Shown in pieces: positions 37,047 through 44,505 of a stretch of DNA of 64,000 bases. Location: contig JBBIPC010000001.1 of NCBI GenBank assembly GCA_037443035.1, forward strand, positions 96,001 through 160,000, in the 5' to 3' direction. The notes under the pieces were generated by a model, which was given only the letters and a program-made list of their open reading frames with translations, had not been told where the DNA came from and made no database searches. Numbering within the stretch: position 1 is the stretch's first letter; each line of letters begins with the position of its first letter. Source of the DNA: Chthonomonadales bacterium. Its GTDB lineage: Bacteria > Armatimonadota > Chthonomonadetes > Chthonomonadales > CAJBBX01. The translations under genes were made by a program, and so were the position numbers.

Positions 37047-37685
37047 TCAGAGTGGGCTGGCCCAGAGTATCTCGACCTGACTCCGACTTAGGTTCTTGGT
37101 ATGGCCATCTCCGTGCAGCACGCAATAGCGCATCTGGTCGAAGATGAGGCCGCCATGCCACCGCCCGCTGGCGTCGAAGAGGACATTGATGGAGGCTGGT
37201 TCCCGCATGCTAGTCTCACCCATGCGGCGGAAGGCGATCTCGGTACGATAGTTGTAGCTCGTACCGAACTTCTCGAAACTGCTCGGACGTGCATCTAGAG
37301 GTACACCTGTGAAGTCTTCGACATCGTAGCCGGTATCCGATGGGCACCGGAAGAGGTTCTTGGAGCGAATGTAGGGCTGCAGGACCTCGTGAATCATAGG
37401 CATGAATGGTATCTGGGCCTGGAAGTCAGGGTAGGGATCCCAGATCTGCGGCGTGTACTTATCCGTCGGGTCTACCGCCCATGGATAGATGTCGTCGTAA
37501 TCCTGGGCGTACATACGGATCGCCAGGCCGGTCTGCCGCAAGTTCGACACGCAGGTTATCTCCCGCGCCTTGCCACGTGCAGTCATGAAGACGGGGAACA
37601 GGAGGCCAGCCAACACCGCAATGATCGCAATCACGGTAAGCAGTTCGATGAGGGTGAAGCCTCGGCGAGCACTTGGATCGAGCAT
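37047..37685 (-). CDS. prepilin-type N-terminal cleavage/methylation protein (DUF1559-like)
   Basis: RGFTLIELL..IAII..LFPVF..AR.KAR..C.SN; FRCPSD; C-terminal DGH; SD AAGGAG. Confidence 0.88.
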   Translation of the reverse strand: MLDPSARRGFTLIELLTVIAIIAVLAGLLFPVFMTARGKAREITCVSNLRQTGLAIRMYAQDYDDIYPWAVDPTDKYTPQIWDPYPDFQAQIPFMPMIHEVLQPYIRSKNLFRCPSDTGYDVEDFTGVPLDARPSSFEKFGTSYNYRTEIAFRRMGETSMREPASINVLFDASGRWHGGLIFDQMRYCVLHGDGHTKNLSRSQVEILWASPL

Positions 37686-37784
37686 GGTACGGTCTCCTTG
37701 GGGCCTGTGTAACGTGAATACTACCTCGACGCATGTTCGGGTTTCACTGCGACAAACGTGAGGACGCATACGTACGGACATTCG

Positions 37785-39449: not shown

Positions 39450-40601
39450 CTAGCGGATTCCTTCTTCTGAGAGCGCCTTGAAGAGTCGGTCGGGCTCGAA
39501 GCCTTCTCCCTTGTAGATCACCTTGCCTTCGCGGTTGAAAACGACGTTGGTGGGATAGGCCCGGACACCGAACATGGCCACCAAGTCCGTCGGTGTCTTG
39601 TTGAGCGCCACCGGGAACGTAAGGCCACGCTCCTGAGCCCACCGTTTGACTTCGTCCCTGGATTCGCCCGTGCCGTTGACAGCAATCACCTCCAGACCCA
39701 GTTGCTTGAGCCGATCGTACACACTCTGCAGTTGCACGACCTCATCGTTGCAATAGGGGCAGGACGTGAAGAAGAAGGTCAACAGAATGACGCGACCCCG
39801 GAGGTCGGAGAAAGTGATCCGGCGACCGTCTACGGTCTCTGTGGCCATCGGAATGGGTACTGCGGGCTCTTCGGGCGCTGGCAGAACCCGCGCCTTGATA
39901 GATCCAGAAGGAAGCTCGAGGCGAAACACGCTGTCGTCTAGTTTGGTGTCGAACGACACCGCGGTGACCGTCTCGACGATCTCGGGAGTCCCTTTCCGGT
40001 ATAGTGCCACGCGGCGGACGAGCCAATCGTCCTGGGTAATGTACACTCGGGCTGTGTAGTCGGCGTCGTAGTCGAACGTGATGACATAAGCTAGCGCATC
40101 GCCGAAGCCCTGAGGGCCGGACAGAGTACCAGCATACAATCGGCCGATCAGCGGATCCGTTCGGTCTTGCCACCGGCCCTGGAGCAACACTGTGATGAGG
40201 CGCGTGGCCGGTGCCGGGAGTGTCACGCCGGCAAGAACGTCCGCTCCGATGAGTTGCTTGGGCGCTTGCTTCTGCGTGAAAACCTGGCGTAGCATACGCA
40301 GCGCAGTGAGCTCGCGTCCATCGCAGGCGATTTCTGTATCGAAGTATGCCCCTCGAGCTGATAGACGGAACAGGTTGGGACGCTTCGCCGCCACTGCCAC
40401 CGTCGCTCTGTATTGTTTCTCGCCGAGGGTGCGGGTCCACTCCGTAGATACGCGCATTGTCTGCGCGGCTCTGTAGTTCGCTGCCGTCTTCATGAGCACC
40501 TGCTGCAAGTCGAGTGGGCCTGAGTGGGCGTGAGCGGTTCCCGCAAGTAGCGCACACAGTGCCGAGCTTGCGACGTACTCGATTCCACGCAGTGTTCTCA
40601 T
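39450..40601 (-). CDS. secreted LolA/DUF2092-like domain fused to a TlpA/redoxin domain
   Basis: Signal peptide AHA-H; KRPNLFRL..IACDG LolA-like beta pattern; CPYC and cis-Pro motif AYPT. Confidence 0.8.
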   Translation of the reverse strand: MRTLRGIEYVASSALCALLAGTAHAHSGPLDLQQVLMKTAANYRAAQTMRVSTEWTRTLGEKQYRATVAVAAKRPNLFRLSARGAYFDTEIACDGRELTALRMLRQVFTQKQAPKQLIGADVLAGVTLPAPATRLITVLLQGRWQDRTDPLIGRLYAGTLSGPQGFGDALAYVITFDYDADYTARVYITQDDWLVRRVALYRKGTPEIVETVTAVSFDTKLDDSVFRLELPSGSIKARVLPAPEEPAVPIPMATETVDGRRITFSDLRGRVILLTFFFTSCPYCNDEVVQLQSVYDRLKQLGLEVIAVNGTGESRDEVKRWAQERGLTFPVALNKTPTDLVAMFGVRAYPTNVVFNREGKVIYKGEGFEPDRLFKALSEEGIR

Positions 40602-40609
40602 CGCATCAC

Positions 40610-41266
40610 CTATCCAATCCCGAGCCACGTGTTCATCAAGAACCACACGCGGTCAATGAGCAGCGCCATTCGAGCCATGACCGTCGAGCCGAAAATGGCG
40701 CCGAAAGCGAACATGAGCATGAGCCTGCCGGTCCGAGCCGTGGTGCGCAGTACCGGGTTCTTCTGCTCGAAGGAGAAGAAGAAATACGTCATTACGGTGA
40801 TGATAATGACGACGAAGATGATGTTGTTCAGGGTCTGGCCCAGCGCGGTAACCGAGCTGCCAGGCGGCAGCATATTCTGGGTCACCCAGAGAGGCTTGAA
40901 CGAGCCGCGGATCTGCGGAATGTACAGGTTGGCGGTCGCCTGGAACGACTGGCCAGCGGCGAAGCCGAGAAGGATGCCGATGGAGAGCCGGCTCATCCAG
41001 TTATAGCGCTTGGTGAAGATGGTGTAGAAGAGTAGCCCTCCAAAGAGGGCGAAGACCCACGGCCACTGGCCGTCCCGTGTCATGGGCGTCCACCACTGGG
41101 GTTCCAGTATCTCGTGCCACGCTGCCTTGATGGTGTACCCCGCCGCCAGGCCGATGAACATGTGCTCGAACAGCCGGTACAGCCGGTTCTCGCGGTAGAT
41201 GAGTGAGAAAAGGGCGAGCGTGCCGATGGCGCCAATCCAGACTCCTATGGGATGGGACCACTGCAT
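40610..41266 (-). CDS. conserved polytopic membrane protein (about 6 TM), DUF6754-cluster subunit
   Basis: Hydrophobic helices; ENRLYRLFEHMFIG; TGATG coupling to the upstream gene. Confidence 0.8.
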   Translation of the reverse strand: MQWSHPIGVWIGAIGTLALFSLIYRENRLYRLFEHMFIGLAAGYTIKAAWHEILEPQWWTPMTRDGQWPWVFALFGGLLFYTIFTKRYNWMSRLSIGILLGFAAGQSFQATANLYIPQIRGSFKPLWVTQNMLPPGSSVTALGQTLNNIIFVVIIITVMTYFFFSFEQKNPVLRTTARTGRLMLMFAFGAIFGSTVMARMALLIDRVWFLMNTWLGIG

Positions 41267-42102
41267 CAGGCGTTCCCTCCTCTCCGCTTGGCTGCGTACA
41301 TACCGTAATTGCCCAGGCCGATCAGGACGAACAGCAGCACCAGAGACAACGACACTGGTGTAATGGCTCGGGTCGTGAAGCCCTTGATTCCCAACAAGCG
41401 TTCGTACTCGGCAGCCCCCTTGATGCCGAAGAGCATTCCCTTCATCTGGCCGGAGTCTATATACGTATACAGTTCTGGAGCCATGACCGAAGTAGGGGCG
41501 TAGCAGAAGGCAGCGTCCGTCGTACCGACCACGAGGCCAAGCCAACTGGCGTAGTTACCGCTAGCCGAGACCTCGGCGATGACATTCACGTCCTTGATGT
41601 TGTGAATGCCCTTCATCACGGGGAACTGGTCGAGCGGCTTGTCTTCCTGGGAGTCCCGCTTCAGCGTCTCCCGCATGTCCTTGACCATGCCCTTGAGCGT
41701 TCCCGCGATGTCAGCACGGTAGCCGAAGTTGATCCAGTCCCTGCCGTACTCGTAGTGGTACTGTTTAGCGAGCCCCTCCGCCACCTCCTGAGCGAGGATG
41801 GTGGACTGAGGATCGCCGAATGCGATGAGAGCGAAACGAAGTCGTTTGCGCATGAGGTGTTCCAGGATGACGCGGGTCTGAGGGCGGTTCTCCCCCTGTG
41901 TGCTGGCGCTCCACAGCGTCGAGACCAGCGCAATCTTGTTGGGATCTGCAGTCTCGATGGCCTGGTAGAAGCCTCGTGCCTGAGGCCCTACTGCCAAGGG
42001 TAGCGGAATGGGCACAAGAAGGCCCAAGACGACGATAATGAGCAGAGCAGCGTACAGGTAGCGCCGGTCAATGGCCTGTAGCTTCGTCCAGAAGTCGGTC
42101 AT
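41266..42102 (-). CDS. membrane-anchored alpha/beta-domain protein, DUF6754-cluster subunit
   Basis: N- and C-terminal TM helices flanking a soluble domain (YGRDWINFGY, GIKGAAEYE); TGATG coupling. Confidence 0.8.
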   Translation of the reverse strand: MTDFWTKLQAIDRRYLYAALLIIVVLGLLVPIPLPLAVGPQARGFYQAIETADPNKIALVSTLWSASTQGENRPQTRVILEHLMRKRLRFALIAFGDPQSTILAQEVAEGLAKQYHYEYGRDWINFGYRADIAGTLKGMVKDMRETLKRDSQEDKPLDQFPVMKGIHNIKDVNVIAEVSASGNYASWLGLVVGTTDAAFCYAPTSVMAPELYTYIDSGQMKGMLFGIKGAAEYERLLGIKGFTTRAITPVSLSLVLLFVLIGLGNYGMYAAKRRGGNA

Positions 42103-42911
42103 CAGTCTTCCGCCTTTGCCTCGAAGAATGCGCCGCGCTCCAGAGAAAGCCAGAGGCGCAGGGCGATGGCTAGACCGCCAATGCCCAGCCCGAACCCGAT
42201 GGCGCGTGTGGCCGGAGCGTTGACAGTCAGCAGCAACCAATTGCTGATGTTATCCAACCTGAAGAGCGACGCGAACGTGCCTTTCTCCGGAATGACATGG
42301 GTGATGTACTGACCAATGGGGATCTGCCCCAACATGACAACGAGGGCCGCAACCATGAGCAGTGTCGCTTCGGCGGACTTTACCCGGAATGCTCTGTATG
42401 CTGCGGAGATGATGAAGAACGCTAGGGTCGCGAACATGGCTGCGTCGAAGCTGTTCAGTACGTCACGGAACAAGGACCGGAAGAAGAGGGAATCGCGGAA
42501 GCCCAGACCCGCAATCGCCATGACCAAGAGCGATACGAGCAGGACGACGCTGTTCTCCCACCCCTCTCGTAGCTTGGTCACCTTGCCGACGTGGATTCGG
42601 ACAAGACTGAACACGCCGAGCCCCAACGTGAATGCGGCTAGCACATTGATGACGTTCCCCACCGTGGGCACTGCGAACGTCAAGAAGTTCTCGTCGGTCT
42701 TCTTGTCCACAGGCCAGAAGAACTCCAGCGCGTAGAATAGCCCTGCGAGGAACGTCATCGTTGCGATCAGGGCCTTGCGGGCGCGTCCCGGCAGTGCCTG
42801 CAGCGCGAAGAACAGCACGACGCAGCCCAGCGCCGCCAGGAGGATGGCAATCCACTTCCAGTGGCCATGGGCAGGTGGGAAGGCCGCCGAAAGGAACTTC
42901 TGCAGATTCAT
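42102..42911 (-). CDS. conserved polytopic membrane protein (about 7 TM), DUF6754-cluster subunit
   Basis: LAFFIISAAYRAFRVKS.EA.LL motif; Gly-rich last helix. Confidence 0.8.
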   Translation of the reverse strand: MNLQKFLSAAFPPAHGHWKWIAILLAALGCVVLFFALQALPGRARKALIATMTFLAGLFYALEFFWPVDKKTDENFLTFAVPTVGNVINVLAAFTLGLGVFSLVRIHVGKVTKLREGWENSVVLLVSLLVMAIAGLGFRDSLFFRSLFRDVLNSFDAAMFATLAFFIISAAYRAFRVKSAEATLLMVAALVVMLGQIPIGQYITHVIPEKGTFASLFRLDNISNWLLLTVNAPATRAIGFGLGIGGLAIALRLWLSLERGAFFEAKAED

Positions 42912-42927
42912 CGTCACGCTCCACTTC

Positions 42928-43710
42928 TCACTTCAATGTGAACCACTGGACGAACCACCACTCCTTGCCCAGTGCTGGGACCGTCATGCCAACGACACCG
43001 ATAAGTATCACCAGCAGGAAGATGATCTTGCAATAGTCCTGGCCAACCAGACTGCCAAGGAGTGTCGGCTCGCGGGAGATATAGGCGCTGGCCGCGTAAT
43101 ACTCGTCGCCTATAATCGTGTAGTCGCACGAAGCGATGAAGAATGGTAGCTGAGTAGTCGAAACGGTGCCCGCCACCTGGATGGCACCCACCTGCTGACC
43201 AGCCTCAGCAAAGATCAGCGACTCGGCAAAGAAGTCGCCGAAGAGAAAGCTGGCTGCCACACGCTCGCGGAAGATGGTACCGGCTACACCTGAGGCGAAG
43301 GCGAACTGACGATCGGAGAGGAAGTAGACCGAGTTCGGATCGTAGTCCTCTGGCTTGCCCGCAGCAGCATAGGAATCCCGGACTACTTCCTCAGCAACAG
43401 TGTAGAGAGCCGAGTCTGCCGTCGGCATGATGAGCTTGTTGCCAAACTTGGCGGCCGTCTTGATGATGTAGCTGAAAATGGTCAGTGCCTGGAGTCCTAC
43501 TACGCCGAGTCCGCTGAGACCGGGAACCATCAACAGAGGCCGTCCCATTTCCGTCGCTCGGCCCACCGCTTCGTCTATGGCGTTCAGGCCTGGGATGCGG
43601 CGGATGAAGTACTTGCGCCCTCGCTGTGCCGTGATGATCGTGTAGAGGATGATCACCGACATCAGCGCAATGAGGATCGCAGATTCCCACCTATCACTCG
43701 CGTGAGTCAA
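42928..43710 (-). CDS. DUF6754-like membrane protein
   Basis: IRRIPGLNAIDEAVGRATEMGRP, AESL, QVAGT, IIGDEYYAASAY, GQD motifs recalled as DUF6754 (needs HMM confirmation); TTG start overlaps the upstream stop. Confidence 0.75.
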   Translation of the reverse strand: MTHASDRWESAILIALMSVIILYTIITAQRGRKYFIRRIPGLNAIDEAVGRATEMGRPLLMVPGLSGLGVVGLQALTIFSYIIKTAAKFGNKLIMPTADSALYTVAEEVVRDSYAAAGKPEDYDPNSVYFLSDRQFAFASGVAGTIFRERVAASFLFGDFFAESLIFAEAGQQVGAIQVAGTVSTTQLPFFIASCDYTIIGDEYYAASAYISREPTLLGSLVGQDYCKIIFLLVILIGVVGMTVPALGKEWWFVQWFTLK

Positions 43711-44021
43711 GAGGATTCCCCCTTTCGGTCTTGCTCTCTGGACGTCGCCAGCTCTTCGAGCCTTCTGATGAGCAGCTCGACATTGTCCCGGCATTCCAGC
43801 AGACGCGAGGCAGCTGAGACACGGCCGAACCCGACGATGGGCGCGATCAATGGCGACGTGACGATGAGCGTTTGGCTGGCAAAGAAGGACAGCGGCTTGT
43901 GCATCTCCAGAAACAGGATCGCGGGTGTCTCCAGGCCGCGCCTGTGGATATTCTGGGCGATAGACTCGATCAGCTCGTCGCGCTCCTCCGGAGAGAGCGG
44001 CTCACCGAAGTCAGCGACCAC
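43707..44021 (-). CDS. small conserved hypothetical protein
   Basis: RRGLETPAILFLEMHKPL...LLE.RDNVELLI; overlaps both neighbours. Confidence 0.7.
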   Translation of the reverse strand: MVADFGEPLSPEERDELIESIAQNIHRRGLETPAILFLEMHKPLSFFASQTLIVTSPLIAPIVGFGRVSAASRLLECRDNVELLIRRLEELATSREQDRKGESS

Positions 44022-44505
44022 TGCGTGCGATCTCCACCGAATCTCGAACGAGTCTCTCGATTTCCGATCTGCTGGCCGACGTATCCCCGGTCGGGTACCG
44101 GAGGCAGATGCCTCGGAAAGCATCGAGGCGGCTGGGGCTGCTGAACGGCGAGAGTCGAAGCCCGTCCCGTTCCGGGATGATCCTGCGTATCCCGCGCCAG
44201 GGCATCTCCAAGCGCGCCAGGCCGTAAGCGCAGTGTACGGACCTGGACGTTAGGCGGTACCGAACCGGCAGCAGGAACTCGGCAGCCGAACCCATCACGA
44301 ACAAGGAGCCCAGCACTGACCCCATCCAGTGATGCAATGCCAGTCCGCCCACAGCCGCTGCAAGCACAACCGCAGCAGCTACTCCCCACACCTTGTGTGG
44401 CTGTGTCGCCATCAGATGAACAGACCACTCGGCAAGCACGACTTCCTCGGCGTGGGCCGAGTCACGTTCTGGACTTGCCGTCGCTTCAGGGTTAGTGGTA
44501 AGCAT
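44011..44505 (-). CDS. hypothetical membrane protein (2 TM plus PH-like beta domain)
   Basis: Two TM helices then FLLPVRYRLT...MPW...LSPF..PSRLDAFRG; start uncertain. Confidence 0.65.
   Translation of the reverse strand: MLTTNPEATASPERDSAHAEEVVLAEWSVHLMATQPHKVWGVAAAVVLAAAVGGLALHHWMGSVLGSLFVMGSAAEFLLPVRYRLTSRSVHCAYGLARLEMPWRGIRRIIPERDGLRLSPFSSPSRLDAFRGICLRYPTGDTSASRSEIERLVRDSVEIARSGR

Follow-up and report, generated by a model that had tools for sequence, protein, structure and literature searches.

Group II ECF transporters are organised so that one energising module serves several membrane modules. PilM and GspL are actin-fold scaffolds holding bitopic membrane proteins, and the known client of the diol dehydratase reactivase is a soluble B12 enzyme. 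In a passage of one paper MutL/GlmL is termed a chaperone for glutamate mutase reactivation (PMC4682846), and a passage of another puts PilM, type II secretion protein L and the glutamate mutase and diol dehydratase reactivase families in one actin superfamily (PMC5597319). The subject of this analysis is a four-gene membrane unit, ABCD, located on the minus strand at positions 40610..43710 of a 64,000-nucleotide stretch of contig JBBIPC010000001.1 from a Chthonomonadales bacterium (Armatimonadota), hereafter the window, together with four further genes, U1, U2, G and X, which co-occur with it. The membrane system is real and widespread, is apparently undescribed and fits no family examined. 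Full-text literature searches, with most subscription papers and all supplements outside their scope, returned no paper on DUF6754 (PF20539), the family of subunit A, in agreement with the preliminary description of the locus, whose author knew of no functional characterisation. No membrane subunit has an assigned function, despite the presence of the system in 132 of 151 Armatimonadota genomes, 38 of 41 WOR-3 genomes (1–5 matches to A per genome) and, in the CSSED10-310 phylum, 12 of 14.

Compared with what has been catalogued, subunit A belongs to a Pfam family without function, while B, C, D, U1 and U2 are family-less. The likeness to group II ECF transporters is one of analogy, since here too a single driver would serve membrane modules dispersed over the genome (the copy numbers fit), but the putative driver is a predicted actin-fold ATPase and the module has four subunits, two of them with soluble domains; no match to an ABC nucleotide-binding domain, EcfT, permease, binding protein or S-component was obtained among A-D, U1, U2, G and X. 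The diol dehydratase reactivase is likewise an actin-fold ATPase with a partner, X weakly matches the swivel-type protein RraA (E 0.16) and the Rossmann-like domain of A is a possible client; the difference is that the known client of the reactivase is a soluble enzyme and not a membrane complex, and no significant sequence match connected the reactivase with G or X.

Organization and conservation of the ABCD unit

The genes of the system present in the window were the following (lengths in amino acids, aa):

42928..43710, minus strand: subunit A (DUF6754), 260 aa, TTG start; PF20539 match, structure model and charge bias
42102..42917, minus strand: subunit B, 269-271 aa; the ATG start gives 42102-42911, with an in-frame GTG at 42917
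41266..42102, minus strand: subunit C, 278 aa; structure model, fold search and charge bias
40610..41266, minus strand: subunit D, 218 aa, Gly-rich and polytopic; alignment, weak internal repeats
43707..44021, minus strand: U1, small protein, ~104 aa, start estimated; the longest open reading frame (ORF) reaches 44123
44011..44505, minus strand: U2, small membrane protein, ~164 aa, start estimated; overlaps U1

The tight coupling of the four genes reported previously was correct for the B/C and C/D junctions, both TGATG overlaps, and for the A/B junction, a gap of 16 nucleotides to the ATG of B. The TTGA overlap counted with them joins A to the upstream fifth gene U1 (U1 stop at 43707) and is thus not among the three junctions within ABCD. 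The sequence motifs listed earlier (QRGRKYFIRR, DRRY, KRRG, IIGDEYYAASAY and LFGIKGAAEYE) were all found in the ORFs. Pfam and NCBIfam scans agreed with the earlier statement that the four genes contain no ATPase or known binding-protein domain, and no family scored above its cut-off for B, C, D, U1 or U2. Subunit A matched PF20539 with 319.1 bits against a gathering cut-off of 27, over positions 8-248 of 257, and is by this profile match a full DUF6754 member. Sequence and profile searches of PDB gave no significant match for A, B, C, D, G or X, a plasmid search gave none, and a look-up of RNA runs listed none.

The gene order was counted for 161 distinct A copies over 237 loci, a survey of co-occurrence having been proposed in the preliminary description. 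B-C-D followed directly after A in 138 copies and after an intervening second A in six, 12 copies were cut by the end of the contig or locus, and five were without B, C and D downstream. The ABCD arrangement recurs far beyond chance. For five loci with a lone or cut A, C was located elsewhere in four of the five genomes. Within the 151-genome Armatimonadota set the same 132 genomes gave matches to A, D and U1 and the same 19 gave none, and none of the 14 control genomes had a match to A. A separate search of 300 genomes (256 with A) covered the same phylum as the 151-genome set and was not counted as independent. Relatives of A, the best-conserved membrane subunit, numbered 2,406 at 50% clustering.

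The genome of the window contained a second, diverged ABCD on another contig (C2; 30-50% identity), so that it holds ABCD twice and each of U1, U2, G and X once. In six loci (L045, L125, L131, L136, L137, L241) A, and no other gene of the unit, was duplicated in tandem ahead of a single B-C-D set, suggesting that different versions of A are exchangeable on a common core. Inter-subunit covariation over 83 operons (effective number 66) gave no enriched subunit pair and no usable signal within the proteins, and is uninformative.

The predicted ATPase G and the other co-occurring genes

Clustering of the neighbours brought out G, a 600-aa PF13941 protein in 16 loci, and X, a 375-aa protein in 18 loci. 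The order U2-U1-G-X-A-B-C-D was found in L101, L110, L113, L114, L115 and L118, and also in six of the 20 CSSED10-310-phylum loci (L228, L231, L233, L235, L236, L237), with a seventh cut after A. The WOR-3 loci L140-L142, L212, L213 and L217 had the order U1-G-X-ABCD-ABCD, and a very divergent metagenome locus, L182, had A-B-C-D-G-X. U1, which every genome but one carries only once, lies ahead of A in Armatimonadota and adjoins G in 16 of 25 WOR-3 loci. U2 gave 72 matches in 100 loci and is the first gene of the operon in many lineages; the pair U2-U1 stood directly before A in 57 of 135 A copies. The single G and single X of the window's genome are both located on contig C9, apart from ABCD.

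The linkage extended to the presence of the genes. Among the 151 Armatimonadota genomes G was detected in 134, comprising all 132 with A and two others, and X in 130, while in 17 not one of A, D, U1, G and X was detected. A single top-scoring G was present in each of 38 WOR-3 genomes, accompanied in six of these by weaker paralogues, and 37 of the 38 A-bearing genomes had a full G, the remaining one having a G fragment. By gene order and joint occurrence, ABCD is part of a larger system with U1, U2, G and X. The preliminary description had taken the four genes for a self-contained secondary transporter that works without an ATPase, which the G-X co-occurrence and operon linkage indicate to be probably wrong: the predicted actin-fold ATPase G, with X, U1 and U2, co-occurs with ABCD and forms one operon with it in several phyla.

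Several additional observations were made on these genes. The divergent second G paralogues of the six WOR-3 genomes were located at G159:C40, G173:C118, G164:C193, G189:C48, G177:C101 and G160:C15, that of G159 being on the same contig as two A copies. All 13 genomes of the Armatimonadota family f6 were without A, D, U1, G and X. In the window's genome a presumably sialate O-acetylesterase-like gene and a small membrane-anchored gene stand between G and X (L151:4195-6359), and a bidirectional NiFe hydrogenase-like cluster follows X.

The G protein matched PF13941 over its whole length, and its residues D11-G13-S14-T16-T17, D286-G288-T291-T292 and G425-S426-G427 were invariant in 65 of 65 rows. 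We take these to be the phosphate-1, phosphate-2 and adenosine motifs of the actin fold, and by them G is predicted to be an actin-fold (actin/ASKHA-type) ATPase. The whole-length match and the motifs are shared with GlmL/MutL and Or-4 (PF13941, NF040745, NF040744, TIGR01319), but G differed from them in scores below three GlmL-type cut-offs (NF040745, 240.7 vs 475; NF040744, 217.7 vs 600; TIGR01319, 173 vs 204 bits), in ~120 extra C-terminal residues relative to GlmL and in the near-absence of glutamate mutase E. A true GlmL from locus L152, used as a control, scored 593.7 and passed the GlmL cut-off. Glutamate mutase E (PF06368) was matched, weakly, in one of the 151 Armatimonadota genomes, the one holding the true GlmL; G occurred without it in 133 of 134 genomes, and the window's genome had no match to the B12 mutase E. 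A lysine aminomutase search of this genome matched nothing, but neither did its controls, so it carries no information. Judged from these sequence comparisons, G is not the B12 helper that the GlmL label implies, suggesting that many database labels of the kind "GlmL / glutamate mutase L" are wrong.

The X protein had weak matches to barrel-sandwich domains (Biotin_lipoyl in 19 of 22 rows, RnfC_N in 17 and NQRA_N in 8) and a weak SH3/KOW-like tail, with no invariant lysine. The likeness to the Rnf/Nqr ion pumps was restricted to this RnfC/NqrA-like domain, since no Rnf/Nqr membrane family was matched among the B and D rows and the B and D alignments contained no conserved cysteines.

In WOR-3, gcvP was found directly upstream of U1-G in 12 of 20 loci and lplA after D or G in four; glycine-cleavage or lipoate-ligase genes adjoined 13 of the 20 G loci. 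Two Fermentibacterota loci had the linkage as well, and six Armatimonadota loci had it in divergent orientation; it was noted at L101, L110, L100, L107, L131 and L140-L142 and, with the genes diverging, at L032 and L042. At L212, L213, L217, L101, L110 and L140-L142 (WOR-3 and Fermentibacterota) the glycine-cleavage genes run into the head of the operon and a lipoate-protein ligase follows its tail, all on the same strand. Such an arrangement, together with the weak domain matches of X and the description of GlmL as a reactivating chaperone in a passage of PMC4682846, would be expected of a cofactor-handling or ion-pumping complex tied to glycine cleavage or lipoate, the X domains acting as carriers and G reactivating a cofactor held by A. 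This explanation is clearly unlikely, considering that the linkage was missing from 20 of 20 CSSED10-310-phylum loci and 20 of 20 Armatimonadota G loci, that X has no invariant lysine and B and D no conserved cysteines, and that the window's genome lacks a match to the mutase E. In that genome the gcv/lplA genes are ~82 kb away. With its absence elsewhere, the linkage may be inherited gene order, and it is a lead only.

Topology and fold of the membrane subunits

The AlphaFold2 models of A and C had predicted local distance difference test (pLDDT) values of 93.8 and 95.2, and both confirmed the previously proposed architecture of a transmembrane segment (TM), an alpha/beta domain and a second TM. 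The two proteins were folded separately and not as the natural fusion mentioned below. Both models contained the same series of elements (TM, helix, six strands alternating with helices, TM), the C model having one insertion and a very short last strand relative to A. The two late motifs pointed out earlier, IIGDEYYAASAY and LFGIKGAAEYE, were present and mapped to the same structural element in A and C, the last strand with its helix.

The charge bias was expressed as the mean number of K+R in the 12 residues before/after each helix. It amounted to 0.59/4.62 for TM1 and 1.41/0.17 for TM2 in A (139 rows) and to 2.99/1.0 for TM1 and 1.1/3.37 for TM2 in C (150 rows), so the opposite charge distribution noticed in the window's two proteins holds family-wide, indicating that the domain of A is inside and that of C outside. 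Several of the 64 longer A relatives scanned had FN3, beta-propeller, PKD or Ig domains before TM1 or after TM2, which puts the N- and C-terminal ends of A on the outside. P0388, a fusion that occurs naturally, consists of a signal-like peptide, the C domain, an FN3-like linker (a visual reading, not a Pfam match), a TM, the A domain and a TM; the C domain thereby comes to lie on the side of A's outer end, and the two proteins are physically joined in that organism. The Rossmann-like domain of A would, by this reading of the sequences, face the cytoplasm and that of C outward, and the models support a common Rossmann-like fold class for the two. Another C protein, P0389 (L182:7763-10993), had an N-terminal zinc-ribbon-like motif and ~750 Pro/Asp/Trp-rich low-complexity residues before TM1, probably on the cytoplasmic side.

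A common fold neighbour of A and C was the 152-residue solved protein MT0777 (1kjn), with Z 9.8, root-mean-square deviation (rmsd) 3.5 and 134 aligned residues for the core of the A model and Z 10.1, rmsd 3.1 and 138 aligned for that of C. Other fold neighbours were SDR, sirtuin and RCK domains, these neighbours having Z ~10 and 10-13% identity, and no single match stood out in the fold search with either model. Foldseek gave no match at E 0.001 for A or C and no B12-binding domain among the matches listed; in view of the low identity and the missing Foldseek match, no function is transferable from the fold neighbours. The atlas clusters nearest to C were unnamed. BLAST and profile-profile comparison of A with C and of B with D gave E 0.018-0.028 and 0.09-0.15, respectively, not above block shuffles. 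Of the inverted pseudo-symmetry suggested for the unit, a common predicted fold class on opposite sides was retained; inverted-topology heteromeric transporters would have homologous subunits in opposite orientation, and the A-C sequence similarity was no better than in shuffled controls.

For B and D, both described previously as proteins with 6-7 TM, the number was correct for B, which had seven hydrophobic segments corresponding to seven predicted TM by hydropathy, many of its relatives being shorter (207-234 aa). D showed 3-4 hydrophobic segments at the threshold used, and six helices are inferred for it from three weak hairpin repeats (E 0.0016 and 0.0066). The B alignment had a conserved basic loop, SAAYRAFR.RS.EA, and a C-terminal LRIWLGLERG; the residues E34, G39, G101, F162, G180, M185, G189, M197 and R199 were invariant in D. 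Scans of 107 B rows and 99 D rows gave scattered weak family matches only. The second B copy of the window's genome (L111:1070-2605, G000:C2) was 511 aa long with a large insertion after the first segment, which by eye resembles a propeller of the glycoside-hydrolase type and may be a cargo hint for that paralogue.

ABCD acting alone, as a self-contained secondary transporter or channel of inverted twin subunits without an ATPase, must be considered very unlikely. The shared predicted fold and opposite facing of A and C would fit it, as would the presence of RCK gating domains among their fold neighbours (Z 8-9.6), the invariant charged residues E34 and R199 of D in or beside hydrophobic segments, and the frequent location of ABCD units far from G. 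However, none of the 132 A-bearing Armatimonadota genomes was without G, the WOR-3 genomes with A had a G, in one case as a fragment, and G-X shares an operon with ABCD in several phyla. Furthermore, B and D resemble each other at shuffle level only, and the RCK chains, as found in RCK-gated potassium channels, were tied with or below unrelated Rossmann folds.

Possible function and genomic surroundings

We tentatively favour the reading of ABCD with U1-U2-G-X as a modular ATP-driven importer, which falls somewhat short of being probable. The ABCD proteins likely assemble into one interchangeable membrane unit, and U1, U2, G and X likely make up a shared cytoplasmic driver, both judged from the gene arrangement, with the C-A fusion as a further indirect sign of the former; the assembly, the use of ATP, the direction of transport and the cargo are inferred. 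In such an importer the outward-facing C, with the variable outer domains of A, would catch the cargo, B and D would form the path across the membrane, and the inward-facing twin domain of A would take over the cargo or signal that it is bound. G-X would hold on to A and spend ATP to reset the unit or to force the cargo off, in the way that the chaperones GlmL and diol dehydratase reactivase are said to act on B12 enzymes. Where a genome has several diverged ABCD units, each would have a cargo of its own and all would depend on one driver. As a guess, the cargo might be a tightly bound small molecule, such as a cofactor, an amino acid or a peptide.

A bolder version, possible but less likely than not, would be a new class of primary active transporter, distinct from the ABC, ECF and P-type classes. 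In it several four-subunit modules, each with a pair of opposite-facing Rossmann-like domains, would be powered by a single chaperone-like ATPase of the actin fold, and it would be nearly a core feature of Armatimonadota, WOR-3 and further phyla that are mostly uncultured. If it is a true transporter, the energy coupling would follow a new principle, an actin-fold ATPase driving solute movement; we know of no described transporter with such a driver. Since the ATPase and both soluble domains are amenable to separate purification, the question is directly testable.

A number of results weigh against an importer. Neither B nor D matched a transporter family. About 115 of the 132 A-bearing Armatimonadota genomes had a single A match, with which a housekeeping role fits as well as a nutrient importer. 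Two Armatimonadota genomes, 92-93% complete, had G and X without A, D and U1, and the 17 joint absences correspond to ~4-5 independent losses, 13 of them being in one family. The fold search with A returned 265 chains at Z 8 or more, and Rossmann-like folds are so common that the fold shared by A and C is weak evidence of common origin; at the profile level 6 of 25 block shuffles scored higher than A-C and 12 of 25 higher than B-D. Finally, with the gcv/lplA linkage confined as described above, no neighbour pointed generally to a substrate.

The near-universal and mostly single-copy occurrence in Armatimonadota (132 of 151 genomes) would also suit a platform for envelope building, export or transmembrane signalling, in which G would be PilM/GspL-like, or C would sense the outside and A relay to G-X. 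The large variable adhesin-like ectodomains of A and the 750-residue low-complexity extension of one C are in line with this, as is the actin superfamily that, in a passage of PMC5597319, includes PilM and type II secretion protein L besides the glutamate mutase and reactivase families. In the window, moreover, a gene of LolA type follows 8 nucleotides after D. Nevertheless, such a platform appeared somewhat unlikely. A genome may contain as many as ~5 complete, diverged ABCD units, suggesting that their specificities differ; the recurring neighbours included no conspicuous cluster of secretin, pilin or cell-wall genes; the LolA-like neighbour was matched in one of 121 related loci; and the system is missing altogether from one family (13 of 13 genomes).

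The LolA-like gene itself (39450-40601, minus strand) encodes a fusion protein in which a TlpA-type thioredoxin (CPYC) is attached to a DUF2092 (LolA-like) domain, and it is probably co-transcribed with D in this window. The D-aminoacylase, amidohydrolase and CPBP genes nearby, from which a peptide or amino-acid substrate had been surmised, recurred in none of the 121 related loci, which reach ~4.5-8 kb past the genes, and the D-aminoacylase gene is on the strand opposite to ABCD; cargo of this kind was rejected as a deduction from the window's neighbours, these being unconserved. A prepilin-type N-methylation/DUF1559 gene is located between the D-aminoacylase and amidohydrolase genes (37050-37700, minus strand), and genes of this type were matched in 6 of the 121 loci, a recurrence probably due to the abundance of the family in Armatimonadota.

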